The translations under genes and the position numbers were made by a program. The notes under the pieces are model-generated. The model searched no databases and was not told where the DNA came from. It saw only the letters and a list, made by a program, of their open reading frames with translations. 64,000 bases of DNA from a virus (taxonomy: Duplodnaviria; Heunggongvirae; Uroviricota; Caudoviricetes), in the IMG/VR virus record IMGVR_UViG_3300030029_000205; one strand, written 5' to 3'. Positions 26,518 to 53,165 of this stretch are shown in pieces. How positions within the stretch are numbered: the stretch's first letter is position 1; each line of letters opens with the position of its first letter.

Positions 26518-26591
26518 GTAGATGTAGTTTAATGGTAAAATGTCAGTTTCCCATACTGAGGTTGTGGGTTCGATTCCCATCATCTGCTCCA
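26518..26591 (+). tRNA. tRNA-Gly (anticodon CCC), CCA encoded
   Basis: Acceptor GTAGATG/CATCTGC (one G-U). D-arm GTTTAATGGTAAAAT. Anticodon stem TCAGT/ACTGA with loop TTCCCAT. T-arm GTGGGTTCGATTCCCAT. Discriminator T plus CCA. Confidence 0.6.
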
Positions 26592-27078: not shown

Positions 27079-27152
27079 TGCAGAAAGTAGTTTAATGGTA
27101 GAATACCCGCCTAAGAGGAGGAAGATGCAGGTTCGACTCCTGTGTTCTGCAG
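27079..27152 (+). tRNA. tRNA-like gene, type and anticodon unresolved
   Basis: Acceptor TGCAGAA/TTCTGCA, 7 bp perfect. D-arm TAGTTTAATGGTAGAAT. T-arm GCAGGTTCGACTCCTGT. Anticodon stem pairs poorly in every register. Loop region contains CCTAAGAGG. Confidence 0.45.
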
Positions 27153-29446: not shown

Positions 29447-30598
29447 ATGATTACAGGAACAGCAAAACTGGTAGTTGACTTGGGTAATTCTGAAACCCGT
29501 GTTAAGACTATCTACGGAAAGACAGCAAAGGGTAATGTAAGAGAAAGGTTGAGTATTATTGATAACAGGTATAGTATTGTACCTGATGAAAAACTTGACC
29601 TTTACTTGAAAGGTGATACCTATTCAAGCGAAAGCTCTTATGTTTTTGAAAGAAATGGTATTTACTATTGCAATGGAGATGTTTGTAATATTGAGATGGC
29701 TCAGACTTCTTTCAGACCTACAGCTCTTGAAAAGAAGTATGAGTCTAAGGTTACTCTGTTTACGCTTATCAATGCATTCAGACAGGGTATTGAAGATGTT
29801 GCAATATTCTCAAATTGCGACAGTGATAATGTAGATGTAGATTGGGAGGTATATCTTCTTTTGCCACCAGAAGACCTTGAGGCAGGCTCTCAGGCTATTG
29901 CAAGTATGGTTAAGAGTATTGAAGATATTAACTTCTTAATGCCTGAGCTTTATAAGAAAATCAGCATCTCAAAGGTAAAGGTATTTCCAGAGGGTATGTG
30001 TGCTTTCTTCGGAGTTCTGTTCTCTTCAAAGGGTATTGTAAGAAAGGGATATGACTATCTTATGAATCCTGTAGAATCCACGGTAATATTTGATATCGGT
30101 GCAGGTACTACTGACATTGTTATGATTAGGGGTAGTCAGATTGTACAGAGTTCAAGATTTACTAAGGAAATCGGTGGTAACAATGTACATAGATTGGTAC
30201 AGAGAAGCCTCAGAAGCAAGGGTATTTCACTTCCAGATGAAGTAGTTCGTGAAGGAGTAAATACAGGTTATGTTAAGAGTGGTTCTCGTTCTATTGATAT
30301 CGCTGAAGAGATTGCATCTGCTAAGCAGGCGGTATCTAATCAGCTTGTAGACGCTGTACAGGAATTCTTTGAAAGTTCTATGATTAGTATTAGAACTATT
30401 TCAAATATTCTTGTATGCGGTGGCGGTGCTGAAGTATCTTCTAATAAGGAGATTAAGCCTATTTCTGATTATATTGTAAACTATATGAAGAGATTGTCGC
30501 CAGATATTAAGCTTGTAAAAATTCCAGAGGACGAAGAGGGTAATCCTGTTTCATCAAGATTGTTAAATATCAATGGAGCAGGTATTCTCGCAGAATAA
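29447..30598 (+). CDS. actin-like ATPase (ParM/StbA/Alp-family)
   Basis: Actin-fold motifs: LVVDLGNSETRVK (phosphate 1), IFDIGAGTTDIV (phosphate 2), ILVCGGGAEV (adenosine). RBS TAGGAGG. Confidence 0.8.
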   Translation: MITGTAKLVVDLGNSETRVKTIYGKTAKGNVRERLSIIDNRYSIVPDEKLDLYLKGDTYSSESSYVFERNGIYYCNGDVCNIEMAQTSFRPTALEKKYESKVTLFTLINAFRQGIEDVAIFSNCDSDNVDVDWEVYLLLPPEDLEAGSQAIASMVKSIEDINFLMPELYKKISISKVKVFPEGMCAFFGVLFSSKGIVRKGYDYLMNPVESTVIFDIGAGTTDIVMIRGSQIVQSSRFTKEIGGNNVHRLVQRSLRSKGISLPDEVVREGVNTGYVKSGSRSIDIAEEIASAKQAVSNQLVDAVQEFFESSMISIRTISNILVCGGGAEVSSNKEIKPISDYIVNYMKRLSPDIKLVKIPEDEEGNPVSSRLLNINGAGILAE

Positions 30599-31553: not shown

Positions 31554-32450
31554 ATGAATTTGATATTGTTGATTATAGGAATTATTCTTGTTATATGTGC
31601 AGGTGCATTTTCCATAATTTCTTATAAAGAGGAAAGTGCGAAGCGTATTATCGGAGGTTTGCTGTTGATAGTTGGATTGGCTTTTGCAGTGGTATCTCAG
31701 AGTTTTGCAATTATTCCGACAGGGTACACAGGTGTAAAGACTACTTTTGGTCAGATAGATAATACTACTCTACAGAACGGTTTTAACTGGAAGACTCCTT
31801 TTATTCAGAGTATTGAGATGGTTGACAACAAACAGCAGGATATCTCATTTAACGATGATGAAATATGGAGTGAAACCAAAGAGAGAACAGCTATTTACTA
31901 TAAAGGGGTAACTGTTACATATCAAATTAATCCTGAAAAGTCCTCTTGGATTTATGCCAATATTTCTAATTATAAAGATAGTTTGGTAACAAAGCCTTTA
32001 GTTAGTTCTGCTATTAAGGCATCGAGTAAAGATTTATCCGATGTAGATGCTACTAATCGTTCTATTATTGAACCTAAAGCTTTAAAGAATATACAGGATA
32101 GTCTTAACGATAAGTATGGTAAAGATGTTATCTATGTAAATAAAGTAACCATTAATAATGCCGACTTTGAAGAGTCTTATAATAAGGCTATTGCTGATAA
32201 ACAAAAGGCTCAGCTTGCAGCAGAACAGCAGGAAATTGAGAATAACAAAGCTATTGCTAAGGCAAAGGCTGATGCTGAGGTAGCTGTAAAAGAGGCTCAG
32301 GGTAAAGCAGATGCCAATGAGATTTTGAGGAAATCTTTATCAGATGAGGTTCTTAGGGATAAGTACATTGAGAAATGGAATGGTCAGATGCCAAATGTAG
32401 TATCTGATGATAGTTCTGTTATGTATGGTATAGATTCATCAAGTAAATAA
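31554..32450 (+). CDS. SPFH/band-7 (prohibitin/HflK-like) membrane protein
   Basis: N-terminal TM IIGIILVICAGAFSII and a second hydrophobic segment. PTGYTGVKTTFGQ....LQNGFNWKTPFIQSIEMVD matches the SPFH core. C-terminal coiled coil AQLAAEQQEIENNKAIAKAKADAE. Confidence 0.8.
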   Translation: MNLILLIIGIILVICAGAFSIISYKEESAKRIIGGLLLIVGLAFAVVSQSFAIIPTGYTGVKTTFGQIDNTTLQNGFNWKTPFIQSIEMVDNKQQDISFNDDEIWSETKERTAIYYKGVTVTYQINPEKSSWIYANISNYKDSLVTKPLVSSAIKASSKDLSDVDATNRSIIEPKALKNIQDSLNDKYGKDVIYVNKVTINNADFEESYNKAIADKQKAQLAAEQQEIENNKAIAKAKADAEVAVKEAQGKADANEILRKSLSDEVLRDKYIEKWNGQMPNVVSDDSSVMYGIDSSSK

Positions 32451-38616: not shown

Positions 38617-40608
38617 ATGGAAAATTGGTTTTCTGATAAAATGTCAGAAGAAGTTCCATTTGAAGAAATTCAAGAGAAAGCTGACAATGGTGATTTTCAT
38701 CAGTGGAACTTTGAACCTTTTGAATTTCAGGAGAATGGCTATGAAGATGTACTTGATGAGATTAAGAAGTACACTGCTGTAGATTATCTTAAGCTTGACG
38801 AGGAAAGAAAAAAAGCTGAAAGTAGTGGAAATTCCGAAAAGGCAAAAGAGTACAAGGCTAAGATGGATAAAATGGTAGACGATGTGCTTGCAATTTACAG
38901 ACAGAAGAACATCTTTCCCATTCAGTATTTTTCAGAATTCGGTATTTTTGATGAGATTGAAAAATGCGTGGCATACAAAGCCTTTTGGAATGGAAATGTA
39001 GTAAGTTGTGGAGCAGGAGTGGGTACTACTCTTTGTAACTATCTTTTTCCTAATTTGTTTGATACTCCATCTCAGCACGATTTGGATAAAACAAATGCTC
39101 GTTCTCTTTATGAGAAATTCAACAATGATGATTTTCTCCGTAGAGCTATAAAGTTCTGTTTTAGTTATAAGAATGGTTGTCCAGTACCTACATCAGTTAT
39201 GGGTGGTTTAAGATTGGTAGGTAGTGCACCTACAAACTTTCGACCTATGAATGCTAAGGCAGTGTTTGAAAGGTTTTGTCCAGAGGGCGGAGTGATTTAT
39301 GATTTCTGTTGTGTATCTGGGGATACTGAGTTCTTTTGTGGCGATGGTTGGAAACCTATTAGTGAATATATGAAAGGCGACAAGGTTTTGCAGTATAATG
39401 AAGACGGAACTGCTAAAATGGTAGAACCAGAGGAGTACATTCATTATAAGAATAACGAGCCTTTTTATGAATACGAAAATGAAGAGTTTGCATCTTGTCT
39501 GACGGGTAATCATGATGTGGTTTATACACGATATGATGGCATACATAAAATCAAGCAGAGTGAGATATTAGACGGCTTTGATGGCGGGATTCCCATCACT
39601 TGTGAGTTTGGTTCAAAAGGGAGTGTTTATAGCTATGAAGATATGATTAGTATGGTTACTCACTTTGTAGCTATGTCTGAGAAAGATTCATCTCTTTACA
39701 AACAGTTTTGTAATGCTCTTTATTCTATGTCTTATGACGACAAGTGTTTTTTTATTGAGAAAGTTTTTCAGGGTAAAAATATATGGTTTACTGTAAATAA
39801 AAAGGCAGCTGATATTGTAAATACTCTTTGCAGAATGGTAGGGTGTTATTCTGTTATGAATAATGACCGTATTGCTGATGATATTTATTATGTAGAAAGG
39901 GATACTACTGGTTATAAGAATACTTCAAAGTATGAAGTAAATGAAAAGTACAGCTTTAAAAAGGTAGAACAGGAAGATAAATATTGTTTTGTTGTACCCA
40001 GTCATATGCTTGTGCTACGCTATAAGGGTAAAGTATTTATAACTGGTAATTGCGGTTTTGGTGGAAGAATGCTTGGAGCTCTTTCTTCTAAGAAGAATTT
40101 TAAGTATGTAGGAACTGACCCTTGTACTGAGACAATGTATCATCTGCATCAGCTTGGTGACTATATTGAGATGGTCACTGGTAGAGATGATTCATATGAA
40201 CTTCATTGTTGCGGTAGTGAGGTCTTTAAAGGACCAGAGAATAGCATTGACTTTGCTTTTAGTTCCCCACCGTACTTCAACCTTGAGGTGTATTCTGATG
40301 AAGAAACCCAGTGCTATAATAAGTTCCCAGAGCTTAATCAGTGGTTAGAGGGATATGTAAGAGAGACGATTAAAAATATTAAGCATATGCTGAAGAAGGG
40401 CAGATGTTATGCAGTAAATATTGCAGACTTTAAAGTTGGTGGAGGTAGTGAAGTAGCTTATGTAGATGAGTGGATTCGCATATCAACAGAAGAGGGTATG
40501 CCTTTATTTGATACAGTATATCTTGGTGTAACTGCAAGAGCAGGTAGTAAAGAGCAGGCAGCTGGAGAACTTAAGAAAGAAAATATTCTTATCTTTAAGA
40601 AAGTGTAA
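38617..40608 (+). CDS. DNA amino-methyltransferase (motif I DFCCGFGG, motif IV SPPY) interrupted by an intein
   Basis: Extein: ...VIYDFC | CGFGGRMLGA...FSSPPYFNLEV. Inserted Hint domain CVSGDTEF...GDKVL (block A), LTGNHDVV (block B), YCFVVPSHMLVL...FITGN followed by +1 Cys. Confidence 0.8.
   Translation: MENWFSDKMSEEVPFEEIQEKADNGDFHQWNFEPFEFQENGYEDVLDEIKKYTAVDYLKLDEERKKAESSGNSEKAKEYKAKMDKMVDDVLAIYRQKNIFPIQYFSEFGIFDEIEKCVAYKAFWNGNVVSCGAGVGTTLCNYLFPNLFDTPSQHDLDKTNARSLYEKFNNDDFLRRAIKFCFSYKNGCPVPTSVMGGLRLVGSAPTNFRPMNAKAVFERFCPEGGVIYDFCCVSGDTEFFCGDGWKPISEYMKGDKVLQYNEDGTAKMVEPEEYIHYKNNEPFYEYENEEFASCLTGNHDVVYTRYDGIHKIKQSEILDGFDGGIPITCEFGSKGSVYSYEDMISMVTHFVAMSEKDSSLYKQFCNALYSMSYDDKCFFIEKVFQGKNIWFTVNKKAADIVNTLCRMVGCYSVMNNDRIADDIYYVERDTTGYKNTSKYEVNEKYSFKKVEQEDKYCFVVPSHMLVLRYKGKVFITGNCGFGGRMLGALSSKKNFKYVGTDPCTETMYHLHQLGDYIEMVTGRDDSYELHCCGSEVFKGPENSIDFAFSSPPYFNLEVYSDEETQCYNKFPELNQWLEGYVRETIKNIKHMLKKGRCYAVNIADFKVGGGSEVAYVDEWIRISTEEGMPLFDTVYLGVTARAGSKEQAAGELKKENILIFKKV
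39310..40050 (+). mobile_element. intein (247 aa) inserted within methyltransferase motif I (FxGxG loop)
   Basis: Begins Cys (CVSGDTEFFCGDGW) and ends ..KVFITGN followed by Cys+1. The central ~140 aa may be a degenerate homing-endonuclease or linker domain. Penultimate residue is Gly, not His. Confidence 0.6.
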
Positions 40609-40621
40609 TAAGGTGGTAATT

Positions 40622-41080
40622 ATGAAAAAGGTACTTGCAGTATTTGTTTCGTTGGCTTGTATTATGGTAGTGTTGGTAGGATGTCAACAGCTTTCAGAGG
40701 AAGATTTCTATACTAAAACAGGAGATGCAGGTATGGCTACTTCTGATATGGCAGTTTCAGGAGAAACTGCAGAGCTGGGTATTGTAAAATATGGTACAGC
40801 CTCAAAAGATAATGCTTATTCTATAGAGTATTTCGAGTTTTCTAATGGAAGTAAGGCTGAATCCTACTATAACAATATTGTAAAAAGGTATAACGAGTTA
40901 TTTGATAAAAAAGATAGTAACGATGTCTTTGTTAAAGACCACAATGAGTACACTCTTGATACTGATATGTTTTATATGAAGGTATACAGGAAAGATACCA
41001 AATTGGTGGTGCTTTCTGTAAGGGATTTATCTTATAAAAACACTGCTTTGAAAGTATTTAACAATGTTGTTGCGAAGTAA
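40622..41080 (+). CDS. lipoprotein
   Basis: ATG 5 nt after AAGGTGG. MKKVLAVFVSLACIMVVLVGC with lipobox LVGC. Confidence 0.75.
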   Translation: MKKVLAVFVSLACIMVVLVGCQQLSEEDFYTKTGDAGMATSDMAVSGETAELGIVKYGTASKDNAYSIEYFEFSNGSKAESYYNNIVKRYNELFDKKDSNDVFVKDHNEYTLDTDMFYMKVYRKDTKLVVLSVRDLSYKNTALKVFNNVVAK

Positions 41081-41115
41081 GTAATATTGTGTTAAATATA
41101 TTAAATGAATATTAT

Positions 41116-41147
41116 AACCCTCTGTATTTATAGAGGGTTATTTTCAT
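41116..41147 (+). terminator. intrinsic terminator (AACCCTCT...AGAGGGTT + ATTTTCAT)
   Basis: 8-bp stem, T-rich tail. Confidence 0.55.
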
Positions 41148-41189
41148 ATTATAGAATGTTTTAATAACTGTATATAGGAGGTATTGTTT

Positions 41190-41900
41190 ATGGGTAATAC
41201 AGTAGTAAAAATTAGTAAGTATGATTACAATAACAAATACAAAGATGTACCAGAATTGAGCAGTTTAAACTCAAGAGAAGATGTGGCTACATTCTTAGAT
41301 ACTTTTGAAGAGTCAGGTTTAAAAGGGTACAATATTGAAAAGATACTGACAAAAAATTCAAAGTATATTTTTGTGTACAGTGATAAGATAACTGGTTGGG
41401 ACTTTTTCAAAGAGATTAATAAGTTATCTTCTATTGATATTGATATAACTCCTCAGAATATAAAAATTTTGTTTGATAAAACAAAATCGAGGGGATATTT
41501 CACTGAAGAAGATTATACTCCAGCTACTAATACGAGTGATATGTCTATGAGTGTAGACGAAGATGCTCCTACAGGTTTTATGGGGGACGATTCACCTATA
41601 TTGGATAGTGTTGATAGAAGATTACTCCATGTAAGAAGGGGTGTAAGACTACCTATAAATGACGCTCACGGTATTATCATAGGTAGAAGTACCTCTCAGT
41701 CGGAGTACACAGTGAATAATACAAAGGTTTCTCGTAAGCATGCACAAGTGTATAAAGAAGGTAATAAATGTATGGTACACGATTTTGATTCTGCTAATGG
41801 TACTTTTATTGATGGTTTAAGAGTTAGGTCTGATTTAGACAGAGAATTACTGGTAGGTAGTTCTTTAATGTTGGCAGACGAAGAGTTTAAACTTGTGTAA
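41190..41900 (+). CDS. FHA-domain protein
   Basis: ATG 8 nt after AGGAGG. C-terminus IIGRSTSQSEYTVNNTKVSRKHAQV....DFDSANGTFIDGLRV is a classic FHA (GR...SR.HA...D..S.NGT). Confidence 0.8.
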   Translation: MGNTVVKISKYDYNNKYKDVPELSSLNSREDVATFLDTFEESGLKGYNIEKILTKNSKYIFVYSDKITGWDFFKEINKLSSIDIDITPQNIKILFDKTKSRGYFTEEDYTPATNTSDMSMSVDEDAPTGFMGDDSPILDSVDRRLLHVRRGVRLPINDAHGIIIGRSTSQSEYTVNNTKVSRKHAQVYKEGNKCMVHDFDSANGTFIDGLRVRSDLDRELLVGSSLMLADEEFKLV

Positions 41901-41918
41901 TCAAGAGGTAGGTATCTT

Positions 41919-42608
41919 ATGAGAATAGATTCTTTATCTGATGTAGGTATAAAAAGAAAAGAGAACCAGGATAATTTCTGGTCATCAGTGCTTTTGGTAG
42001 ATGGCAAGGAAGCAGGGGTAATCTGTATTTGCGATGGTATGGGTGGTTTAGATAACGGTAAGTTGGCAAGTAAAATGGTGGTAGAAGGGGTAAGAGACTC
42101 AATACTTAGTAAATTTGATTTCAATGATTTATCTAATGTCTTAGCATCTGTTAATGATAGTATAAGGTCATTGTATGGTGGAGATAGGTCTAAGGCTATG
42201 GGTACAACCTGTACTGTATTGGTTTGCTATGATAATAAATACAAGATAATACATATAGGTGACTCACGAGCATATAAAATTTCTAATGGTACTTGTACTT
42301 TACTTACAGAAGACCATTCCGCTGTAAAGCAGTTCAATATATCTAAGAAAGATAATCCTGTTTTGTGGAACAAGTATAAAAGCAAGTTAACAAGGTGTAT
42401 TGGGGTAGAACCAAGTATTAAACCGTATATATCAGAGGGTACTTATAGTATTGGAGATATATTTGTACTTTGTTCCGATGGCTGTTGGCACTATTTTGAA
42501 GATTTCAATCTAAGTAAAGGTACTATAAATGATTTAAATTCTTTGGTTAGAAGTTGTATATCTAATGGTGAAACTGACAACATAACAGTTAGTGTTTTAT
42601 ACATTTAG
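41919..42608 (+). CDS. PP2C-family Ser/Thr protein phosphatase
   Basis: DVGIKRKENQDNF, ICDGMGG, VLCSDGCW motifs. Confidence 0.85.
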   Translation: MRIDSLSDVGIKRKENQDNFWSSVLLVDGKEAGVICICDGMGGLDNGKLASKMVVEGVRDSILSKFDFNDLSNVLASVNDSIRSLYGGDRSKAMGTTCTVLVCYDNKYKIIHIGDSRAYKISNGTCTLLTEDHSAVKQFNISKKDNPVLWNKYKSKLTRCIGVEPSIKPYISEGTYSIGDIFVLCSDGCWHYFEDFNLSKGTINDLNSLVRSCISNGETDNITVSVLYI

Positions 42609-42784
42609 GAATTTTTAAAATTTTTAAGATATGGTAAAAATAGGGAGTTATGAATTATTATTTATGTATTAAAATATTGTGAGATATGTATCTGATTTTT
42701 CGTTAATATTTGCCTATTTTTTGTGGTTGAGTTTCTGTTGAGCTTTAATTTCGTAAATAGCGTAATGAAAGGAGTTGGAATCTG

Positions 42785-44458
42785 ATGGCAAATAGAAGGG
42801 AACATTTGAACAATGGTGACCTTGTATTAAACGGTAGGTATGAAATACTTAAATGTATTCATTCTAAAGGAATGGCTAATGTTTATCTTGTAAGAGATAC
42901 TCAATTAGGTAAACAATGGTGCTTAAAAGAGATTAGGTTATCTCAAGCAGGTAGGGAAAATATTGAGTATATAAGTCTTATGCAAGAGGCAAACATACTG
43001 CGTTCCTTAAATAATGAGAAGATACCAAGAATTACTACCATTGATAATGATGGTGACTCTTTGTTTGTGGTAATGGATTTCTTAGACGGTGTTACTCTAA
43101 AGGATTTTGTACAGGAGAAAGGCAGAATACCTGAAGAGCTGGCTGTTAAATGGATGATTCAGATAGTACAAGCCGTTGGGTATTTGCATAGTGAGAGGTC
43201 AAATAAGAAGCCTATCTTTTACAGGGATATGAAACCAGATAACTTAATGATTAGGTCAAATGGTGTAATAAATATATTCGATTTCGGTATTAGTGTTAGG
43301 ATAGAGAATCCTAATCAATTACCAGAATACACTCTGGGTACTCCAGGTTATGTTGCTCCAGAGCAGAAAAAGAAAAATTTACCTATGGATTTAAGGTCAG
43401 ATATCTATTCAATGGGAAGAACTTTTTATTTTATGTTGACAGGGGTAGACCCAAGGGGTTTCATAGGGGAGAAGTTAAAACCGATTAGTGATTGGAGTCC
43501 AGATGTTTCGCCAGTATTGATATCTATTGTCAATAAATGTATGGAAGAGAATCCTAACGATAGATATCAGAATTGTGAAGAGTTACAGTATGCTTTAGAG
43601 AATTACAAGTATTCTGATGAAAAACATCGTTCTTCCGCAAAGAGGAAGGTTAAGGTAGTAATTGGATTAGCCGTAGCAGGCATTACAATGGGTATCTTCA
43701 GTATAATTCCTTTTGGTATAAACGGAGCTCAGTCTAAAGATGCTTACAATAAAGCTTTAGTAGTTGCTCAGCAAAGTGGTAGATTAGAAGATTATGATAA
43801 GGTGCTTTCTATGAATCCACTAAGCATACCACCATATGAAGGGTATATAGATGCTATTAAGGAAGATGGTGTTTTTTCTTTAGATGAAGAAAAAGGTCTA
43901 TTAAATCATATAAATCCTAATTTAATAGACTTAAAAAATGATAAGGATTATGGTAAAATTGCTTTTGATATAGGTAAGCTATATTGGTTTTACTATCCAT
44001 CTGAAGATGGAAAAACCTTGTCTATAAAATGGTTTGATGATGCAATAAGCAGTGGTTTTAATAAGGAAGAGTCAACCGCTTATTACAAGTTAGGAGTGTT
44101 TAATAGAGATATTTCTAAATCTGTTAAAGAAGCAAGTGATAGCGGTATGTACAAGGATTATTGGGACAATCTGTTATCTATACAGAATATGGATACAAGT
44201 GATATAATTACTTTACAGACAAATATTTCTATTGCTGAGTGTATTTCAACATATGCATATAACTTAAAGAAAGATGGGGTATCTTATGAAGATATTTCAA
44301 AAGAATTGAAGTTATTAAATGGTTTTGTTAGCAGTTATAAGGTAGATAGTTCTACTTTAGATACTATTAAGTCCTTGTATGCTGAATTAAAATCTGATTT
44401 GGAGGGGTTAAGTGATAGGGTTGATGTGATTTATGGTAAAAGTGGAGGTGGTAATTGA
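42785..44458 (+). CDS. Hanks-type Ser/Thr protein kinase with transmembrane segment and extracytoplasmic C-terminal domain
   Basis: YEILKCIHSKGMANVY (G-loop), WCLKEI (Lys), YRDMKPDNLMI (catalytic loop), DFGIS, GTPGYVAPE. TM VVIGLAVAGITMGIFSIIPF, then ~270-aa domain. Confidence 0.85.
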   Translation: MANRREHLNNGDLVLNGRYEILKCIHSKGMANVYLVRDTQLGKQWCLKEIRLSQAGRENIEYISLMQEANILRSLNNEKIPRITTIDNDGDSLFVVMDFLDGVTLKDFVQEKGRIPEELAVKWMIQIVQAVGYLHSERSNKKPIFYRDMKPDNLMIRSNGVINIFDFGISVRIENPNQLPEYTLGTPGYVAPEQKKKNLPMDLRSDIYSMGRTFYFMLTGVDPRGFIGEKLKPISDWSPDVSPVLISIVNKCMEENPNDRYQNCEELQYALENYKYSDEKHRSSAKRKVKVVIGLAVAGITMGIFSIIPFGINGAQSKDAYNKALVVAQQSGRLEDYDKVLSMNPLSIPPYEGYIDAIKEDGVFSLDEEKGLLNHINPNLIDLKNDKDYGKIAFDIGKLYWFYYPSEDGKTLSIKWFDDAISSGFNKEESTAYYKLGVFNRDISKSVKEASDSGMYKDYWDNLLSIQNMDTSDIITLQTNISIAECISTYAYNLKKDGVSYEDISKELKLLNGFVSSYKVDSSTLDTIKSLYAELKSDLEGLSDRVDVIYGKSGGGN

Positions 44459-44859
44459 TGCTATTAACAATAGGATTCATTATGTTGTTAGTAGGAGTAT
44501 TACTGATATTACTATCTTTAATATTAATGGTGGTATGGAAAGTACCATCGTTGATTGATGAGTTATCAGGTAGAAAAGCTAAAAGACAAATAGAACGAAT
44601 GAGAAAACTTAATGTTGCAACAAGTGGTTTAACTAATATGGATACTAATGAGTTTTACAGGTCTATGGTAGATGCATCATATTCAAGTAATACAGTAGGT
44701 TCTATGTTAGACAATCCATATAATGCAATGTCTGAGAAGGTTGTAAGTTCTTCAATTGGTAATTCATCTTCAGATGATATTGCTACAGATTTATTTGATA
44801 ATTCTGAACAAAAAGGTCATAGTATTAAGGTTCTTATAGAGCAAACAAGTTTAAATTAG
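44455..44859 (+). CDS. small membrane protein
   Basis: Overlaps the kinase stop (ATGA). N-terminal TM LLTIGFIMLLVGVLLILLSLILMVVW. Confidence 0.65.
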   Translation: MMLLTIGFIMLLVGVLLILLSLILMVVWKVPSLIDELSGRKAKRQIERMRKLNVATSGLTNMDTNEFYRSMVDASYSSNTVGSMLDNPYNAMSEKVVSSSIGNSSSDDIATDLFDNSEQKGHSIKVLIEQTSLN

Positions 44860-44870
44860 GAGGTTACAAA

Positions 44871-47800
44871 ATGGTGAATTTAAATTCAACAAAATGTAAG
44901 TTAATAGCATTTTTGTTAGCTGTTATGACTGTAATATCTATGTGCACTAATGCCATAGCAGTATGGGGTAACGATAGCAAATATGGTATTAAGGTACTTG
45001 ACGAGTCTGTAATAGGCAGAATCGATGAAGAAATCGATACTGGTTATATTATAAATGGTAAGACTCTTCAGTTAGATTGTAGTGATTGTGATTGGGAAAA
45101 TATCTCAAAAATTGAAGTTATCAATGAGAAAAATCACAAGAGCAAGTTAACTGAAAAAGGTATCTTAGATGTGCCTAAAGAAAATGGTACATATACTGTT
45201 GTAATTACATACAAAGATGGTGTAAGTACAAAAGATGAAGCAGTAAAAACTAAAAGCACTGCAGATGAGGCTGTAAAAGAGGTTTCTTTCCCGTTAAAGG
45301 ATATTACTTCTTTCTCAACAGTAAAATATGACAAATATGGTACAAAAATCTACTCGGTGTATATAGGTAGAAACCTGATGTCAGAGGGTAGTTGGTTAAC
45401 GGATAAAGTTGCCACAATTTCAATAAATACAAATTTACCTAAAGATGAAATGGTAAAAACTAAAGTGTTGTTAAATGGTAATGAGGCAATTACAGAATTA
45501 AAAGATAAGAAAATTTATGTACAAAGAAAAAATGTATCTTTGCAGAGAGAAAATAAATTAGAGGTTTACATTACTAATTTATATGGTACAGAGTTCAGTT
45601 ACACTTTGAATTTTAAATTTGATAATACAAATGTAAAAGTATCTGATGCTGAGATAAGTGGTAAGACAGCATATCTTGAAGATACTTTACTTGCTGAAAA
45701 AGGTGCTACTGTTAATGTACCAGTAGATTCTGGTGATTTATCAATTTCTTCTGTAGAAGTGTTAAAAGAAGACGAATTGTACGCTAATAGTAATACCTTT
45801 AAATTAAATGATGAGGGGTATTATTCAATAAGGGTAACTAAGGAGTCAGGAAAAGTATCAGTCTTTAACCTTTTTGATGGTAAAAAGGTTGTTTTTGATA
45901 CTGAGAGTCCTAAGTTAGTATCTTCAAAGTATAATGATGCTGATTTTGATACTGATTCTTGGTATAATAAGGAAGGTGTTCTGTCATTTATTGCAAAAGA
46001 TAATATAGCTTTATCAAAAAACTATACTTTAGTAGTAAATGGCAAGGATTATACTTGTGATATCAAAGAACTTGAAGATGATACTTACAGCTATAATATA
46101 GATACAACTTTATGGGATAAAAATGAAGAAGGTATTTATAAAATTGCTCTTACAGCGGAAGATTTAATGGGTAATGAGTTAAATATTTCTACTGTACTGA
46201 AACTTGATACTATTAAACCGAGTTATCATGGGGTTACTGTTGAGAGTGACAGTCAAATTGATAATGTATATTACTTTAAAGATGAAATTACCTTAAAAGG
46301 TCAATTCTCGGACAAAGGCTCAGGGGTAAAAACAGTAAGCTATAAAGATACTGATGATGAAGATTTTAAAGAAATCTCATTACCGTTCAAGACAAAAGGT
46401 CAGGGTACTTTCAAGGTAGAAGATGTTGCAGGTAATATATCTACTTATACTACTGGAGAATTATTAACTCTGTTGGGGGTATCACCCTATGTGGTAGATG
46501 ATGACAATCCTGTAATTGTCAGAAACAGTTTAGATGTACCTTATACAAAAGATGGTGAAGATTATCTTTCAAAAAAGCCAATCTTAACATACAAAGTTAC
46601 TGATAGTAATATGAAATCAGTAGATTTTTACATTAATGGTGTATTACAGGATAGTACATATAATGTAAATGATTTATATCAGTTTAGTACAAACGGTATT
46701 TCTGATGGAAAAAATACCGTAAAGGTAGTTGCTACCGATAAAGCAAACCATGTTTCAGAAGATGTGTACTCTTTTGTTTTAGATAAATCAGCTCCTAAAA
46801 ACATACAGGTGAAGGCTGATAAACCTACAAATGAAAAACAGGGTAATGTTTATTATCAGGAAGATTTAAATGTAAATATTTCTGCGGAAGATAAAACATC
46901 AGGCATTAAATATTATAGTCTTAATGGTAATAACACAGACAAAGGTAATTTTACTATTACTGAAGATGGTTCTTACAAGTTTAATGTATATGATAATTTA
47001 GGTAATAATATAGGTAATACTCCATTATCTGATTACACAGGTTGGGATGGCAATAACATTGTTATTGATAGAAATAATCCTGTTATTGAGGCAAAAAGAC
47101 CTGAGGGTAGTAAGGATGATTGGTTTGATAAGAATGTAGTATATAATGTGTCAATATCAGATGACAAAGGTATTAATTCAGCATATATTACTATTAACGG
47201 AATCAAGGTAGCTACTTTTGAAACAGATAAAACTGATGTAAAGACAGCAACTTTATCTGCTGATACCTCTTTAGTAAAGCCAAACTATGATGGTAGTTAT
47301 GATATTAAGGTCTATACAGAAGATAATAGTAAACGAAATGCATCTTGGTCAGATAAGGTATATATTGATACCGACGCTCCTACTGATATAGTTGTTGATT
47401 GCGAAACCCCATCTAATGAAAAAGGTGGTAATGTTTATTTTAAAAACAGTTTTTACATTCAGGTTTCTGCAAGTGATGATTATGCAGGTATTAGTAAATA
47501 CTATTTAAATGATACAGAAGTCAATGATTCTGGTAGATTTCTTATTGAGGCTAATGGTTCATATACTGTAAGTGTAGAAGACAAAATGGGTAATAAATCA
47601 AAACCCATAACCTTACAAGAGTTGCTTGGTTGGCAGGGGAATAACATTGTTATAGACGGCAATAAACCTGTATTTGATGCAAGCAGACCTAACGGGGAAG
47701 ATACCGAAAACAAGAATTGGTATAAGAAAGATGTAGTATATTCTGTAAAAATTACAGATGATGAGGGTATTAACTTTGCTTATATGAAAGTTAATGGTTT

Positions 47801-50800
47801 AACAGTTTCAGAGTTTACCACTGATGATACTAATGTAAAATCTAATACCTTATCTTTAGATACCTCTAAGGTAGCACCAGATAGTAAAGGTGCTTATGCT
47901 ATTGATGTATACACAGAAGATAATTGTAAAAACGAAAACAGCTGGTCAGATACTATATATGTAGATTACAAGCCCCCTTATAACTTATCTGCTACATCCA
48001 CCACACCAAAGAAAGAAAAGGGTGGAAATGTTTATTTTAACGAGGATGTTGCTTTATCTGTAAAGGCTGTAGACGATTATGTTGGTTTAAAGGGTTTTAA
48101 ACTTAATGGAAAAGAATCAACAACGGGTAAATATACTTTAACTACTGATGGGGAATACTCAATTACTGCTTATGATAAATTATATAATGAGTCAGGTAAG
48201 TATTCTTTACAGTCTTTATTAGGTTGGAGTGGAAATAATGTAGTCATTGATGATAGTAAACCTGTAATTTCAGCTCCAAGACCCTCAGGTGAGAGTTCTA
48301 TAAAGAAAAATTGGTATGGCAAAGATGTAGTTTATAATATCTCAGTATCCGACAACAAGGGTATAGATAATGCTTATGTTACTATCAATGGCGAAAAGGT
48401 TGATAGTTATTATACAGCTGAAACTAATGTTAAAAATATCAGTTTAAAGGCAGATACTTCTAAGGTTGGTGCTAACTCAGATGGTAGTTACAATATTAAA
48501 GTGTATGCTGAAGATAACGGTACTTTAAGTGCTGTATTTGAAGATACAATTTATATAGACACTACTAATCCTGTAGTTGCGAATTTTGGTATATTTGGAG
48601 ATATAAGTAGAACAGGAAAGACTGTCAATGGCGGTGGAAACTATGGTTTTTACTTTGATGGTAAAGGCTCTGTTCAGGTACAGGTAAAAGATGAGGGTAT
48701 CTCATCAGGTATTTACTCTATTTGGACAAAGTTAAATGGTCAAGATTGGGTAGAGCATAAGACAAATGGTGATACCGTTTGTTATGTTGATGTACCTGCT
48801 AATTATAAAGGTTTTGTTGAAGCTTATGTAGTTGATAATGTAGGTCATAAGAGTGGTGTAAATAAACCAGATGGTTTAGTATCAGAGACATCAACCGCCC
48901 ATAAGGGTAGTTCTAAGGTAGCAATTACCTTACCTAAGGAAGTAAGTTTCGATGAAAACAATGTGCCATTGTATAGTGGTAGTCTTACGACAGATGTATA
49001 TGTATCTTGTGATTGGTCTGGTTTAAAGAAGTTAGACTGGGGTATCAACAATACTACATATGGTACAATTACAGACTTCAGTAATGCATCTTCGTGGGAT
49101 AAAAACTTACCTTTAAGCTTTAATAGTAAGTTTAATTTAGATGGTAATGAAAGTTCTATGAAGTTTTGGGTAAGAATAACTGATAGAACTAACCATACTA
49201 CTGAGAATGATAGATTATTTAGTATAGACAAGGTAAAGCCTGTTATCTCAGTATCTTATAATACCACAGAGAGTAATAGTTATTACAATAAAGATAGAGT
49301 TGCAAACATTACGGTAACTGAGAGAAATTTTGATTCTTCTAAATTTGAAGTATCAGGAACAGCAGGAGTTCTTGGTAGTTGGTCAAGAAATGGAGATACT
49401 TGGTCAAATACTATGACATTTAGTGGTAATACTGATTACAAGTACACTTTGAGATGTACTGATAGAGCTAATAATGTTTCAGATGCTTATACAAGTGAGT
49501 CATTTACAGTAGATAAGGTAAATCCAACATTGTCTGTATCTTGGGATAATAACAGTGTTTTAAATGGTAATTATTACAAGTCTGCAAGAACTGCAACATT
49601 AACAGTAGTAGAGCATAATTTTGATGCATCTTTAATTAATGTTGCTAATGCTACTGTAAGTGGTTGGAGTAATAATGGTGATGTGCATACTGCTAATATT
49701 ACTTTCAATTCTGATGGGGAGTATGACTTTACTGTAAGTGGTAAAGATAAAGCAGGTAATAGCTTTGATTCTAATTATAAAAGTGGTACTTTTATAATTG
49801 ATACGGTAAAGCCTAATATAGAGATACTTGGTGTATCAAATGGTGTGTCTTATAAGAAGGATGTATCCATTAGGGTATCTTTAAGTGATAAGTATTTAAA
49901 TAGTGATAACATTTCTGTAAGATTGTACGGTAAGAACCATAAAGAAAAGTATTTAATCGGTGTAAGTGCAGGAAATACTATTACTTATTCATATGATGCT
50001 TTTCCAAAGGATAAGGATACTGACGATGTATATACATTGGAGGTAGTTGGAAGCGACCTTGCAGGAAACATCATGAAAGAGGAAAGGGTATTCTCTGTAA
50101 ATAGATTTGGTTCGGAATACAAATTTATAGAGGAAGGGTATCTCGGTAATTACTTAAATACTTCTAAAGATATTTCAATCTCAGAGTTAAATGTAGATAA
50201 GATTGATACATCTAAGGTTAAGTTTGTTGTAACTTTAAATGGTAAAAATATTGATATAGATTCCAAATATATTACTATTTCCGAAGAAGAGAAAGATGGT
50301 AGGTATTTATATACTTATACAATTAGTAAAGATGCCTTTACTGAGGACGGTAAATATGTTATTCAGGTATATTCAGAGTCTGATGATGGTACAGAATATA
50401 CAAGTGTAGCGGAAGAATATAATTTTGTAATAGATACTCAAAAACCAGTAATTCTTGTATCAGGTGTAGAAAGTAATAACATTTATCAGGATTATAATAG
50501 AAAAGTAACTGTGGATGTAAGAGACTTTTCTGGTGTAAAGAGTATTTCAGTAATTCTTAACGGTAAAGCTATTGAGTACACTGTTGAAGGTGATATGTAT
50601 GTATTTACAATACCTGAGAGTACTGATAGACAAAGTTTGGTAGTAAAAGTTACAGACCTTGCAGGAAATTCTAACGAAATAAAGGTGGATAATTTCCTTA
50701 TTTCTTCAAATACTTGGGTATATCTGATTAATCAGATTTGGTTTAAGGTATTAATAGTGTTAGTTGCTCTTGCAATTATAGGTTTGATAGTATTACTTAT

Positions 50801-51005
50801 TGTAAGAAAGCGTAAAGATATTAAAAATGAAGAGATGCTTGCTAAAGAGAATGAAAAGTATTACAAGAGTTCAGGTGCAAGTTCTTCAGGCAATTCTTTA
50901 GGTGATAAGGATGAAACAGAGTTAATGTCAAATGCTGATACCAATAAGGGTACTGATGTTGTAAACAATGATGATAATGATTCCAATACAGATATGCTTG
51001 AATAA
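44871..51005 (+). CDS. 2044-aa surface protein: signal peptide, many Ig-like/adhesin-type repeat modules, C-terminal TM anchor and acidic cytoplasmic tail
   Basis: RBS TTAGGAGG. Signal peptide MVNLNSTKCKLIAFLLAVMTVISMCTNAIA. Repeated ~290-aa modules (…DTDAPTDIVVD..PSNEKGGNVYF..., IDxNKPVIxAxRP...). TM VLIVLVALAIIGLIVLLIV followed by RKRKD and a D/N-rich tail. Confidence 0.85.
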   Translation: MVNLNSTKCKLIAFLLAVMTVISMCTNAIAVWGNDSKYGIKVLDESVIGRIDEEIDTGYIINGKTLQLDCSDCDWENISKIEVINEKNHKSKLTEKGILDVPKENGTYTVVITYKDGVSTKDEAVKTKSTADEAVKEVSFPLKDITSFSTVKYDKYGTKIYSVYIGRNLMSEGSWLTDKVATISINTNLPKDEMVKTKVLLNGNEAITELKDKKIYVQRKNVSLQRENKLEVYITNLYGTEFSYTLNFKFDNTNVKVSDAEISGKTAYLEDTLLAEKGATVNVPVDSGDLSISSVEVLKEDELYANSNTFKLNDEGYYSIRVTKESGKVSVFNLFDGKKVVFDTESPKLVSSKYNDADFDTDSWYNKEGVLSFIAKDNIALSKNYTLVVNGKDYTCDIKELEDDTYSYNIDTTLWDKNEEGIYKIALTAEDLMGNELNISTVLKLDTIKPSYHGVTVESDSQIDNVYYFKDEITLKGQFSDKGSGVKTVSYKDTDDEDFKEISLPFKTKGQGTFKVEDVAGNISTYTTGELLTLLGVSPYVVDDDNPVIVRNSLDVPYTKDGEDYLSKKPILTYKVTDSNMKSVDFYINGVLQDSTYNVNDLYQFSTNGISDGKNTVKVVATDKANHVSEDVYSFVLDKSAPKNIQVKADKPTNEKQGNVYYQEDLNVNISAEDKTSGIKYYSLNGNNTDKGNFTITEDGSYKFNVYDNLGNNIGNTPLSDYTGWDGNNIVIDRNNPVIEAKRPEGSKDDWFDKNVVYNVSISDDKGINSAYITINGIKVATFETDKTDVKTATLSADTSLVKPNYDGSYDIKVYTEDNSKRNASWSDKVYIDTDAPTDIVVDCETPSNEKGGNVYFKNSFYIQVSASDDYAGISKYYLNDTEVNDSGRFLIEANGSYTVSVEDKMGNKSKPITLQELLGWQGNNIVIDGNKPVFDASRPNGEDTENKNWYKKDVVYSVKITDDEGINFAYMKVNGLTVSEFTTDDTNVKSNTLSLDTSKVAPDSKGAYAIDVYTEDNCKNENSWSDTIYVDYKPPYNLSATSTTPKKEKGGNVYFNEDVALSVKAVDDYVGLKGFKLNGKESTTGKYTLTTDGEYSITAYDKLYNESGKYSLQSLLGWSGNNVVIDDSKPVISAPRPSGESSIKKNWYGKDVVYNISVSDNKGIDNAYVTINGEKVDSYYTAETNVKNISLKADTSKVGANSDGSYNIKVYAEDNGTLSAVFEDTIYIDTTNPVVANFGIFGDISRTGKTVNGGGNYGFYFDGKGSVQVQVKDEGISSGIYSIWTKLNGQDWVEHKTNGDTVCYVDVPANYKGFVEAYVVDNVGHKSGVNKPDGLVSETSTAHKGSSKVAITLPKEVSFDENNVPLYSGSLTTDVYVSCDWSGLKKLDWGINNTTYGTITDFSNASSWDKNLPLSFNSKFNLDGNESSMKFWVRITDRTNHTTENDRLFSIDKVKPVISVSYNTTESNSYYNKDRVANITVTERNFDSSKFEVSGTAGVLGSWSRNGDTWSNTMTFSGNTDYKYTLRCTDRANNVSDAYTSESFTVDKVNPTLSVSWDNNSVLNGNYYKSARTATLTVVEHNFDASLINVANATVSGWSNNGDVHTANITFNSDGEYDFTVSGKDKAGNSFDSNYKSGTFIIDTVKPNIEILGVSNGVSYKKDVSIRVSLSDKYLNSDNISVRLYGKNHKEKYLIGVSAGNTITYSYDAFPKDKDTDDVYTLEVVGSDLAGNIMKEERVFSVNRFGSEYKFIEEGYLGNYLNTSKDISISELNVDKIDTSKVKFVVTLNGKNIDIDSKYITISEEEKDGRYLYTYTISKDAFTEDGKYVIQVYSESDDGTEYTSVAEEYNFVIDTQKPVILVSGVESNNIYQDYNRKVTVDVRDFSGVKSISVILNGKAIEYTVEGDMYVFTIPESTDRQSLVVKVTDLAGNSNEIKVDNFLISSNTWVYLINQIWFKVLIVLVALAIIGLIVLLIVRKRKDIKNEEMLAKENEKYYKSSGASSSGNSLGDKDETELMSNADTNKGTDVVNNDDNDSNTDMLE

Positions 51006-51021
51006 GTCATAAGGTATTAGA

Positions 51022-51061
51022 AAGGGTAAAGCTTATTAAGGCTTTACCCTTTTATTTTTTG
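51022..51061 (+). terminator. intrinsic terminator (AAGGGTAAAGC-ttattaag-GCTTTACCCTT + TTATTTTTT)
   Basis: 11-bp stem plus long T-tract after the giant surface-protein gene. Confidence 0.75.
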
Positions 51062-52106: not shown

Positions 52107-53165
52107 ATGGAAAAGAAGAAAACAGCAGCAGATATTTTAATTGAGGCTTTTTTAAAGGATGTTGACGAAAGAGGTACAATGCCTTGGCAGAGACCATATG
52201 AGAGATATAATGCTTTTAATTGGTATACAAAGAAAGCTTACAGAGGATTTAATAGACTTCTCTTACCATTTGGAGAGTATCTTACAAAAAACCAAATAAC
52301 TAAGTATAATGCTGAGAAAGGGTATATTGAATTATACGAAAATGGTAGGTTGAAAAATATAACTCCTCAGGCTTACTATATGCAGAAGGGTATTAAGTGG
52401 TTACCAGTAGTATTTTTTAAGGTGGATAAGAAATCAAGTAGCAGGGAAGAAATAGCTGAAAACTTTCCTGACTTTGATAAGTTTAATTCAGATGAAATTG
52501 CTTATGCAGGAAGAAAGAACGGATACTTATATTATGTTGAAAAGGGTAAATGTATTAAATCCCGAAACATTTTAAGATATTATGATGTAGCTGACAGGAA
52601 GCATTTCAGAAATGCTAATGGTGACTATCTACCATCCAGAATTGAAACAGGTGAGGTAGAGATAACTAAATCTGATGCTAAAGAAGTAATGGATAATTAC
52701 ATAAACCTTTCAGGTGTAAAGGTAGATTATAAGAATTATGGCACTCCTTGTTATGTACCAGAGTGGGATTTGGTTAGATTAAATCCTCTTACTAAATCTG
52801 AAGATGCTTGGTTTTCCACTGCATTTCACGAATTGGCTCATAGTACAGGGGCAGCATCAAGGTTGAACAGAAAGGGTGTTGTCTCACCAAGTGTAATGAG
52901 AGAATCTACATATGCTGTAGAAGAGTGTATTGCTGAAATCACAGCTTGTCTATGTTGTGCAGAGACAGGTATTTCAGATTTTGAGACCTCTTGTTCTGAG
53001 GAGTATGATAACAGTGTATCATATGTTCAGGCTTGGAAGAAAAGAGTAAAAGACTGGGGTAAAAATTTTATTTACATTGTATCTCAGGCTGATAAGGCTT
53101 TCAATATGATATGTGGTGCACCTGACAGTGTTGCACTTGATGAGGATGGTCAGGAAATAGAATAA
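52107..53165 (+). CDS. ardC: ArdC-like antirestriction protein (ssDNA-binding N-domain plus zincin-like metalloprotease C-domain)
   Basis: N-terminal MPWQRPY...KAYRGFNRLLL (ArdC-N). C-terminal FHELAHSTGAASRLNR (HExxH followed by a RLNR-type motif). Confidence 0.7.
   Translation: MEKKKTAADILIEAFLKDVDERGTMPWQRPYERYNAFNWYTKKAYRGFNRLLLPFGEYLTKNQITKYNAEKGYIELYENGRLKNITPQAYYMQKGIKWLPVVFFKVDKKSSSREEIAENFPDFDKFNSDEIAYAGRKNGYLYYVEKGKCIKSRNILRYYDVADRKHFRNANGDYLPSRIETGEVEITKSDAKEVMDNYINLSGVKVDYKNYGTPCYVPEWDLVRLNPLTKSEDAWFSTAFHELAHSTGAASRLNRKGVVSPSVMRESTYAVEECIAEITACLCCAETGISDFETSCSEEYDNSVSYVQAWKKRVKDWGKNFIYIVSQADKAFNMICGAPDSVALDEDGQEIE

Follow-up and report, generated by a model that had tools for sequence, protein, structure and literature searches.

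A Putative Surface-Sensing Ser/Thr Phospho-Signalling Cassette, Related to T7SSe Gene Sets, on a Probable pXO16-Like Gut Megaplasmid

The type VII secretion systems (T7SSs) designated T7SSe and T7SSd have been defined bioinformatically, the former by the components TseA, A2, B, C, D, F, H, I, J and K and the latter by TsdA, C, D, H and I (Garrett et al., 2024, Microlife; PMC11217815). In the Esr pathway of Actinomycetales, described in a 2026 preprint, a surface sensor in the form of an immunoglobulin-like (Ig) filament and a kinase/phosphatase pair act through phosphorylation of a Thr on an FHA protein, leading to Esx control (PMC13622651). A third point of reference is pXO16, an aggregation-mediated conjugative plasmid of Bacillus thuringiensis sv. 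israelensis. Its conjugation is experimentally established, all of its coding sequences are co-oriented, and it transfers by a "tip" locus, distantly related to type IV secretion systems (T4SSs), in which a hydrolase accompanies two ATPases; the plasmid has been labelled "phage-like," yet phage have never been obtained from it (PMC9673590, PMC6199540). Here we analyze an operon at positions 41190-51005 of IMG/VR virus record IMGVR_UViG_3300030029_000205, within a stretch of 64,000 nucleotides assigned to the Caudoviricetes and referred to below, in its entirety, as the window. An earlier reading of the letters alone (the original prediction) had noted here an FHA protein, a PP2C phosphatase and a Hanks-type kinase beside a giant surface protein, and had proposed a sensing and phosphorylation module on a phage or phage-plasmid. 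Sensing and phosphorylation is still the best functional reading. We judge it rather probable that the operon encodes an envelope-spanning Ser/Thr phospho-signalling module of the TseJ/F/D/H/I type, without a T7SS motor, that serves as a surface-contact switch; from gene content and collinearity, the carrier is probably a conjugative megaplasmid like pXO16 rather than a phage.

The five genes were confirmed on the + strand, tightly packed and forming one operon between two terminators (Table 1). The FHA gene opens with an ATG at 41190 and an AGGAGG 8 nt 5' of it, and the start of the gene for the small transmembrane (TM) protein overlaps the stop codon of the kinase gene. Because the terminator-like hairpins bracket exactly these five genes, the lipoprotein gene upstream and the sigma-factor gene downstream are taken as separate units; the lipoprotein gene does precede the block, as had been noted, but a terminator cuts it off from the operon. 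The same gene order was found again in dozens of independent loci, so the block is not a chance arrangement. A non-coding space of 176 nt between the PP2C and kinase genes is of constant length in relatives and could be an internal promoter site. A small open reading frame (ORF) or structured RNA in this gap was rejected, as it holds no credible ORF and its conservation does not exceed that of coding sequence.

Pfam domains, intact motifs and hydropathy bear out the description of the first four genes. The catalytic residues of the kinase are invariant (K48, E68, RD148xKxxN153, D166FG, APE); its kinase domain (aa 14-285) is followed by a single TM segment (aa 288-313, by hydropathy) and an extracytoplasmic part (aa 315-557) that is predicted to be all-helical, a TPR-like solenoid of 12 helices (predicted local distance difference test score, pLDDT, 93), and that measures ~245 aa rather than the ~270 aa first proposed. 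The phosphatase retains its metal-binding motifs (DGMGG, GDSR, SDG and DNIT), matches the NCBIfam Stp1/IreP model at E=5.9e-41, which is under that model's cut-off, and is homologous to the PP2C proteins of 30 loci; since no TM segment was detected, it is presumably cytoplasmic. An alignment of 27 plasmid-family FHA proteins resolves three regions, a conserved alpha/beta N-domain, a disordered acidic linker (pLDDT below 50) and the FHA domain, in which GR166, S181-R-x-H184 and N203-G are invariant. The small TM protein has an N-terminal TM segment by hydropathy, a conserved juxtamembrane motif (D-E-L-S-G-R-K-A-K-R-Q-I) and a Ser/Thr-rich tail that is probably cytoplasmic.

The giant protein was correctly recognized as a type-I surface protein with a signal peptide, Ig repeats and a C-terminal TM anchor: hydropathy places a Sec signal peptide at aa 6-33 and a TM segment at aa 1948-1982, followed by a 62-aa, probably cytoplasmic tail, and Pfam detects Big_13. 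It comprises ~18 Ig-like units. The repeat module, put at ~290 aa in the original prediction, has a measured period of 195-199 aa (~197): three strong copies at aa ~610-1280, 45-49% identical, each consist of two Ig-like units of ~95-100 aa, and weaker ~100-aa repeats extend from aa ~250 to ~1930. The C-terminal ~900 aa are conserved with TseI/TsdI in 37 loci. Taken together, the kinase, PP2C and FHA set is complete by sequence, apparently active and physically coupled to a giant surface protein.

This combination is not unprecedented: it is the TseJ/TseF/TseD/TseH/TseI set of T7SSd and T7SSe, the cassette families having already been listed by Garrett et al. (PMC11217815). Sequence homology covers four of the five proteins (E 1e-17 to 1e-120) and the FHA domain of the fifth. 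The kinase is 34-37% identical, over its full length, to kinases of verified T7SSe loci and qualifies as a TseD, while the phosphatase, the small protein and the giant protein correspond to TseF (PPM phosphatase), TseH (small, single TM) and TseI (giant Ig protein with Sec signal and C-terminal TM); on this gene-for-gene match the operon reads as TseJ-like, TseF, TseD, TseH and TseI. The likeness extends to the gene order, to the presence of an FHA protein and a PPM phosphatase, to the one-TM architecture of a kinase with a helical ectodomain and to the unstructured tail of the small single-TM protein. There are differences too. In the examined sequence the cassette is without TseC/EssC, the WXG100 proteins TseA/A2, TseB/YukD and TseK; its FHA protein has an N-domain unrelated to the DUF6382 of TseJ; its kinases fall in a separate clade and sit on a plasmid backbone; and the giant proteins of the plasmid clade end in motif-bearing tails of 57-172 aa, whereas those of the chromosomal TseI proteins examined have at most 25 aa. 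The N-domain was considered as a diverged DUF6382 and rejected, as no DUF6382 was found in the window's FHA protein at E<=1 (against 2.2e-12 for the TseJ of reference locus L012) and its hhalign probability is 0.2%.

How far the missing motor can be trusted depends on what was read, namely ~100 kb of an element of ~190 kb, made up of the window with 10 kb of flank at either end and of ~30 kb from a relative that is 89% identical. Searches by tblastn of the window and of seven segments of near-identical or related contigs (L001-L007) for EssC/TseC, WXG100, YukD, DUF4176 and further cluster members, with queries that included 18 WXG100 and four YukD-like sequences from verified loci, returned FHA-domain similarity alone. 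Pfam found no FtsK_SpoIIIE domain in the larger ORFs of the window, TseK was not found in the window, flanks or relative, and when IMG/VR was scanned for EssC with a pair of degenerate peptide patterns, matched exactly, the three large cassette-bearing contigs were not among the hits. It is unlikely, in our estimation, that the cassette is part of a working T7SSe whose motor lies elsewhere on the element, or that it plugs into, reprograms or blocks a T7SSe on the host chromosome, for instance to redirect toxin secretion or to shield the cell that bears the plasmid. Such an arrangement would fit the gene-for-gene homology, the frequency of T7SSe in Lachnospiraceae and gut Firmicutes (PMC11217815) and the ~90 kb of the element that were not read; against it stand these negative searches, the adaptor without DUF6382, the separate clade of the plasmid kinases and the many chromosomal cassettes that themselves have no T7SS marker nearby.

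These chromosomal cassettes came from a scan with the kinase ectodomain of one genome per bacterial species, which identified 34 loci in Lachnospiraceae, Bacillaceae (Niallia, Rossellomorea, Caldifermentibacillus), Clostridium, Christensenellaceae and Coriobacteriia. The order in the scanned chromosomal loci is [FHA]-PP2C-kinase-small TM-giant protein. Reference locus L012 carries, by Pfam, FtsK_SpoIIIE, YukD, WXG100, DUF6382+FHA and DUF4176, and an Olsenella locus (L042) has the T7SSd order. A census of 10-kb flanks found T7SS genes (EssC-type FtsK/SpoIIIE ATPases, WXG100, YukD-like, DUF4176) within that distance in 18 of 33 loci; the markers were absent within it from 13 of 33, with two loci ambiguous, which indicates that the core module exists independently of the T7SS. 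An FHA gene accompanies 14 of the 18 marker-positive loci but only one of the 13 marker-negative ones. This co-occurrence suggests that PP2C, kinase, small TM protein and giant protein form an autonomous core, to which FHA proteins are added as exchangeable output adaptors.

Several observations were made alongside this census. Nine chromosomal loci (L027-L030, L019, L022, L031, L035 and L036) have PP2C, kinase, small TM and giant genes with neither an FHA gene nor a T7SS marker within 10 kb, and four Lachnoclostridium/Lachnospiraceae loci with this FHA-less core have common, flotillin-containing flanks; Rossellomorea aquimaris AcN35-5 is among the genomes with such a four-gene core. A polytopic protein of ~159 aa (cluster c7; L012:11358-11828, and also in L008, L011, L013, L021 and L032) is encoded between the TseH-like and TseI-like genes and is outside the published T7SSe component list, and a protein of 76-87 aa that combines a TM segment with a zinc ribbon (c8) follows TseI in several T7SSe loci; both are absent from the window. 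A ~1690-aa protein beside two loci (c19) was considered as a divergent EssC and had no BLAST similarity to it. A match to a 252-kb "plasmid" of A. rectalis was rejected as a family member, being an ordinary T7SSe-type locus with WXG100 and toxin genes.

The same cassette is carried by pXO16 itself (pBTHD789-1, NC_018516.1; 350 kb). The kinase there (BTF1_RS28375) is 35.8% identical over 97% of the length. Next come genes for a small TM protein of 283 aa (RS28370) and an Ig-like repeat protein of 2402 aa (RS28365), while those for PP2C (RS28455) and FHA (RS28470) are located upstream of the kinase; the giant proteins share 28% identity over 1988 aa (WP_014905367.1), and the small TM and PP2C proteins also match. 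The accounts of pXO16 that were consulted assign no function to the cassette. In pXO16, unlike in the window, the PP2C gene is set apart from the kinase gene by small genes that together take up ~10 kb, and the FHA protein is TseJ-like, with a DUF6382-type N-domain (hhalign 96%).

The resemblance goes well beyond the cassette. Walking downstream along the 89%-identical IMG/VR relative, we encountered no virion genes but a tip-like locus, comprising a 687-aa ATPase with weak DUF87 and AAA_10 signatures, a 748-aa two-TM FtsK/SpoIIIE protein, several polytopic membrane proteins (one of 1752 aa) and a SpoVG gene. Its best plasmid match is pXO16, to which the 687-aa VirB4-like ATPase shows 40% identity along the entire protein and the FtsK/SpoIIIE protein 31%. 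The 1752-aa protein (L071:12935-18193), an ORFan that is 33% identical to a pXO16 protein of 1834 aa, has at least six TM segments and lies in this locus, and on these grounds may be a channel protein of the VirB6/TcpH type. Altogether three blocks are collinear with pXO16: a primase, SbcCD-like genes, an AAA ATPase and a ~1450-aa protein in the first; the cassette in the second; and a clamp-loader-like AAA ATPase, then the tip-like locus up to SpoVG, in the third. A very large ORFan of the window (1464 aa) is 27% identical to a pXO16 protein of 1440 aa. These three blocks and the tip-like ATPases are the reason for reading the carrier as a pXO16-like conjugative megaplasmid, in place of the phage or phage-plasmid first supposed.

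Both elements also have co-oriented coding sequences that are mostly ORFans, a replication/recombination block, and a tip-type block with VirB4-like, FtsK-like and ~1800-aa polytopic proteins and SpoVG. The window has 32% G+C, a GC skew of ~+0.3 throughout and nearly every gene on the + strand. They differ in that identities are 23-41%, in that the present element belongs to another host branch (gut anaerobes, 32% GC), and in size, the gut element being about half as large.

The element is no isolated assembly. Several samples yielded metagenome contigs of 185-196 kb that contain the exact kinase sequence, and among these contigs one is circularly permuted relative to the rest; homologs 48-99% identical occur on contigs of 140-275 kb. 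At 30-50% identity the cassette remains syntenic on large contigs (180 and 232 kb in IMG/VR, and 218 kb from a metagenome-assembled genome at NCBI), with synteny to the backbone genes p527, p663 and ArdC preserved. In simple neighbor-joining trees of the kinases, those of gut megaplasmids (118-275-kb contigs) form one clade in 93 of 100 bootstraps. The tip-type ATPases were read in the 89%-identical relative, and a homolog 92% identical lies on a 190-kb gut contig; a metagenome scan placed further homologs on gut contigs of 139-324 kb, and one contig of 229,201 bp, matched by size and source, appears to hold both the ATPase and the kinase (P0037). Earlier descriptions treat pXO16 as unique to B. 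thuringiensis israelensis. ATPase homologs 43-92% identical were collected from metagenomes of the human gut and other sources, on contigs reaching 324 kb (L085-L106), and judging from these, pXO16-like elements appear to occur widely outside B. thuringiensis.

A jumbo phage or phage-plasmid, using the cassette for superinfection exclusion, receptor masking or an abortive-infection or takeover switch, is in our view decidedly improbable. Relatives are listed in IMG/VR, and the element has three tRNA genes, replisome parts of its own, a sigma factor and an ArdC-like anti-restriction gene; the kinase domain matches phrog_2361 and the PD-T4-6 and MADS6 defense kinases, and the pXO16 literature speaks of a "phage-like nature." The viral label, the tRNA genes and the ~90 kb that were not read keep a phage-plasmid reading alive. 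Yet no capsid, portal, terminase or tail family was found in the ~100 kb, searched with Pfam and PHROGs for the larger ORFs of the window and with Pfam for the genes of the relative (the flanks being covered by precomputed Pfam annotation, and many ORFs having no detectable family); two weak PHROG matches, to Ig-domain or "head" entries, are not diagnostic. The VirB4-like and FtsK-like ATPases are collinear with those of a conjugative plasmid, and we know of no tailed phage that packages its DNA with FtsK/HerA-type ATPases. The PADLOC and PHROG matches, moreover, cover generic catalytic domains: in PADLOC the matches were confined to the catalytic domain of the kinase (PD-T4-6, mad6) and to the PP2C domain. 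PADLOC found no system-specific component and had no match for the FHA, small TM or giant protein, so that the links to superinfection exclusion, lysis-lysogeny and abortive responses suggested by the original prediction are without specific support. No near-identical DNA turned up when the block was compared by megablast with phage and plasmid collections, and a word-indexed search with the kinase ectodomain alone found just two proteins.

A recurrent threonine motif offers candidate phospho-sites. The pattern T-x-[VILFM]-[LIMFV] occurs 138 times in the tails of the small TM proteins, where shuffled sequences give an expectation of 18.1; it is present in 36 of 37 of these proteins, in up to 13 copies in one. 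The tail of the giant protein contains three such motifs (TELMS, TDVVN and TDMLE; 0.07 expected), the extended motif-bearing tail being a feature of the plasmid clade and not of the chromosomal TseI proteins examined. In the FHA linker, T128 is invariant within A-P-T128-G-F-[M/L/I] across the 27 aligned members, with M, L or I at pT+3 throughout, and GTTVLG in TseJ and TTILDE in pXO16 are the equivalents of APT128GFMGDD. The flavor of the tail motif co-varies with that of the FHA linker from lineage to lineage: TEVLS/TTVLS/TTVLG in T7SSe, TQILDE/TTILDE in pXO16, and TGFM/TGIL/TDLFD in the plasmid clade. In pXO16 the small TM protein has TQILDE repeats and the FHA protein TTFL/TTIL motifs.

The repeated motif, an apparently active kinase and a PP2C phosphatase support a phosphothreonine switch in which the FHA domain would toggle between binding its own linker and docking on phosphorylated tails. 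The sequence pattern points to a switch of the GarA kind. In GarA/OdhI of Actinobacteria the FHA domain binds an ETTS motif of the same protein once that motif is phosphorylated. Shared with it are a hydrophobic pT+3 and a Thr motif whose disordered segment precedes the one FHA domain of the protein; different are the additional N-domain of ~110 aa in the window's FHA protein, the partner kinase, which is co-operonic with membrane proteins bearing competing motifs, and the lack of an evident metabolic link. With Esr the likeness is one of logic alone: both have a Sec-exported filament of Ig-like repeats, a kinase/phosphatase pair and a Thr in a disordered region of an FHA protein, the N-terminal architecture of this FHA protein varying with the output in Esr, and both are tied to Esx/T7SS, but Esr employs MoxR, vWA, transglutaminase and a beta-propeller tip, and the filament here is TM-anchored (PMC13622651). 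Pfam found no MoxR AAA+, vWA, transglutaminase or beta-propeller domain in the operon or its neighbors. EssB/YukC of T7SSb and TraF of the pIP501 T4SS are membrane pseudokinases. Like them, the kinase here is bitopic, with a cytoplasmic kinase fold, an extracytoplasmic helical domain and an association with an FtsK-family translocase; unlike them, it keeps all catalytic residues, and it has no Pfam YukC match.

From these elements we propose the following scheme. The Sec-exported Ig filament and the TPR-like ectodomain of the kinase would stand outside the membrane, presumably in a complex, with the small TM protein alongside. The kinase would be activated by something met at the surface, a second cell or an envelope ligand being the most plausible, and would then phosphorylate the Thr of T-x-Φ-Φ motifs in the tails of the small TM and giant proteins and in the FHA linker. 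The FHA domain would read these phosphothreonines, either on its own linker, giving a closed form as in GarA/OdhI, or on the membrane tails, to which the protein would be recruited, and the PP2C would erase the marks. Output would pass through the family-specific N-domain of the FHA protein; in T7SSe, the adaptor would be TseJ, with its DUF6382, and the machine under control EssC. On the plasmid, and this is the step we would defend least, the target would most likely be its own transfer functions, whether the tip-like FtsK/VirB4 locus, mating-pair formation or donor-donor exclusion. Contact as the input and mating or exclusion as the output are suggested by the replicon context and by the shared association with FtsK-family translocases.

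We give little credence to the simpler idea that the giant protein is a mere mating or biofilm adhesin like PrgB or Agr, with the kinase set tuning its expression or display, no contact sensing and no coupling to the transfer machinery. Surface adhesins are commonly relied upon in Gram-positive conjugation (PMC6199540), and the Ig repeats and variable N-terminus would suit one (identity to the closest relative is 71% for the giant protein and 89% for the kinase). The anchor, however, is a C-terminal TM segment with a phospho-motif tail in place of LPXTG, the gene is invariably linked to that of a membrane kinase with a conserved ectodomain, and pXO16 aggregation maps elsewhere. The giant homolog in pXO16 is itself unlikely to be an Agr adhesin, having a C-terminal TM and no LPXTG, while the Agr proteins are of the LPXTG type. 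Finally, that the block is host chromosome beside an integrated element, as the original prediction allowed and as the abundance of homologous cassettes in bacterial chromosomes might suggest, is effectively refuted by identical flanks on 185-196-kb contigs from several samples (one circularly permuted), by the synteny with p527, p663 and ArdC in relatives at 30-50% identity, by composition and strand bias that are uniform over the window, and by the region 40608-41190, where an attachment site would have been expected and which holds a terminator alone, with no integrase or att-like break.

Several points weigh against a contact-sensing module on a conjugative megaplasmid. All functional statements on the cassette are inferred from sequence. 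The aggregation phenotype of pXO16 has been assigned to two other giant proteins, the LPXTG proteins Agr (PMC8835621). Cassette and tip-like locus are connected through residence on the same replicon, ~40 kb apart here and ~140 kb apart in pXO16. The pXO16 kinase is placed as sister to the gut clade with a bootstrap of 27%, so vertical co-inheritance of the cassette with the backbone is not proven. The window's own small TM protein has a single motif (TDLFD; 0.24 expected), and a multivalent scaffold is therefore a weak idea for this particular protein. Lastly, IMG/VR lists the relatives as viral, the exact patterns used for EssC could miss a divergent ATPase, and the ~90 kb that were not read could hold EssC, WXG100 or a phage structural module.

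The protein families that make up the cassette are known as a set (Garrett et al., 2024). What is new is an ATPase-less variant that belongs to the backbone in a large family of gut megaplasmids resembling pXO16, the possession by this variant of its own FHA adaptor and its own motif-bearing giant tail, and a repeated Thr motif that links TseH-like tails to FHA linkers; none of the three is described in the T7SS, pXO16 and Esr papers that were searched. If borne out, the core of kinase, phosphatase, small TM protein and giant protein would be separated from type VII secretion as a portable surface-sensing phospho-relay, occurring alone in chromosomes and conjugative megaplasmids, with an FHA adaptor that varies with context. 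There would be a large, overlooked family of pXO16-like megaplasmids in the human gut, on contigs of 118-324 kb, some of them listed as viruses. There would also be concrete phospho-sites to examine, the T-x-Φ-Φ motifs of TseH-like tails and FHA linkers, and in pXO16 a tractable genetic model. More speculatively, the module may be, in place of a structural part of type VII secretion, an autonomous contact sensor that is plugged through swappable FHA adaptors into two FtsK-family machines, EssC (by TseJ) and the pXO16-type tip apparatus (by the FHA protein with the new N-domain); in the gut megaplasmids it would make DNA transfer or donor-donor exclusion dependent on contact with a recipient, and this tentative extension would explain the pheromone-independent, one-donor-one-recipient mating of pXO16-type plasmids.

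Table 1. Coordinates, in the window, of the operon, its parts and neighboring features.
Feature	Position	Strand	Basis or remark
1464-aa ORFan	11189-15583		pXO16 homolog of 1440 aa
Region without ORF of at least 100 aa	24237-27404		~3.2 kb
tRNA-Leu (TAA)	26285-26372		
tRNA-Gly (CCC)	26518-26591		
tRNA-Leu (AAG)	27079-27152		
Actin-like ParM/Alp7A-type segregation ATPase	29447-30598		upstream of cassette
SPFH/Band-7 protein	31554-32450		upstream of cassette
Lipoprotein gene	40613-41080		5' of first terminator
Intrinsic terminator-like hairpin	41114-41141	+	12-bp stem then T-run; between lipoprotein gene and operon
FHA adaptor protein, 236 aa	41190-41900	+	Pfam FHA E=1.4e-12, aa 162-225
Candidate phospho-acceptor motif APT128GFMGDD, FHA-protein linker	41565-41591	+	27-member family alignment
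PP2C/PPM Ser/Thr phosphatase, 229 aa, TseF-like	41919-42608	+	Pfam PP2C_2 E=1.8e-10
PP2C-kinase gap	42609-42784		176 nt
Membrane Hanks-type Ser/Thr kinase, 557 aa, TseD-like	42785-44458	+	Pfam Pkinase E=3.1e-40
Kinase TM segment	43646-43723		hydropathy
Kinase extracytoplasmic part	43727-44455		predicted fold
Small bitopic membrane protein, 133-134 aa, TseH-like	44455-44859	+	N-terminal TM; homologs in 32 loci
TDLFD motif, small TM tail	~44785-44799		
Giant Ig-repeat envelope protein, 2044 aa, TseI-like	44871-51005	+	Pfam Big_13, signal peptide, C-terminal TM
Giant-protein tail, 62 aa	50817-51002		probably cytoplasmic
Intrinsic terminator-like hairpin	51020-51053	+	15-bp stem then T-run; 15 nt past giant-gene stop
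Sigma-70 region-4 protein, 189 aa	51201-51770		just past operon terminator
ArdC-like gene	52107-53165		ArdcN + zincin metallopeptidase

The surroundings of the operon are partly variable. The sigma gene just past its terminator is absent from the 89%-identical relative L007 and replaced by a full-length sigma-70 of ~350 aa in L057 (~50%), which marks it as a variable neighbor outside the cassette. The ArdC-like gene lies beyond the sigma gene and a 113-aa ORF. In relatives at 30-40% identity (L052, L053 and L044) it stands directly after the giant gene; it is 96% identical in L007, against 71-89% for the cassette genes, and the comparison with ~170 kb of pXO16 gave no homolog of it. The ParM/Alp7A-type ATPase and the SPFH/Band-7 protein are consistent with a low-copy extrachromosomal replicon. 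The three tRNA genes, which lie in a stretch of ~3.2 kb, are odd cargo for a plasmid and may be one reason for viral calls of such contigs.

Two further groups of loci deserve mention. A contig of 235,995 bp from a Mogibacterium bin (L044) carries a plasmid-type cassette with p663 and ArdC, its genes frameshifted; recoding of stop codons was rejected there, as all three stops follow changes of frame and point to indel errors or decay. In the Ruminococcus phages NatCom_29429 and NatCom_3870 (PV036441.1 and PV036417.1; Ca. Heliusvirales; L008, L049 and L050), entered in GenBank as complete phage genomes, a T7SS-like cluster with FtsK/SpoIIIE-like genes, a kinase and a giant homolog of ~1850 aa lies directly beside the integrase in one record and at the end of another, and is either prophage cargo or wrongly included host flank.

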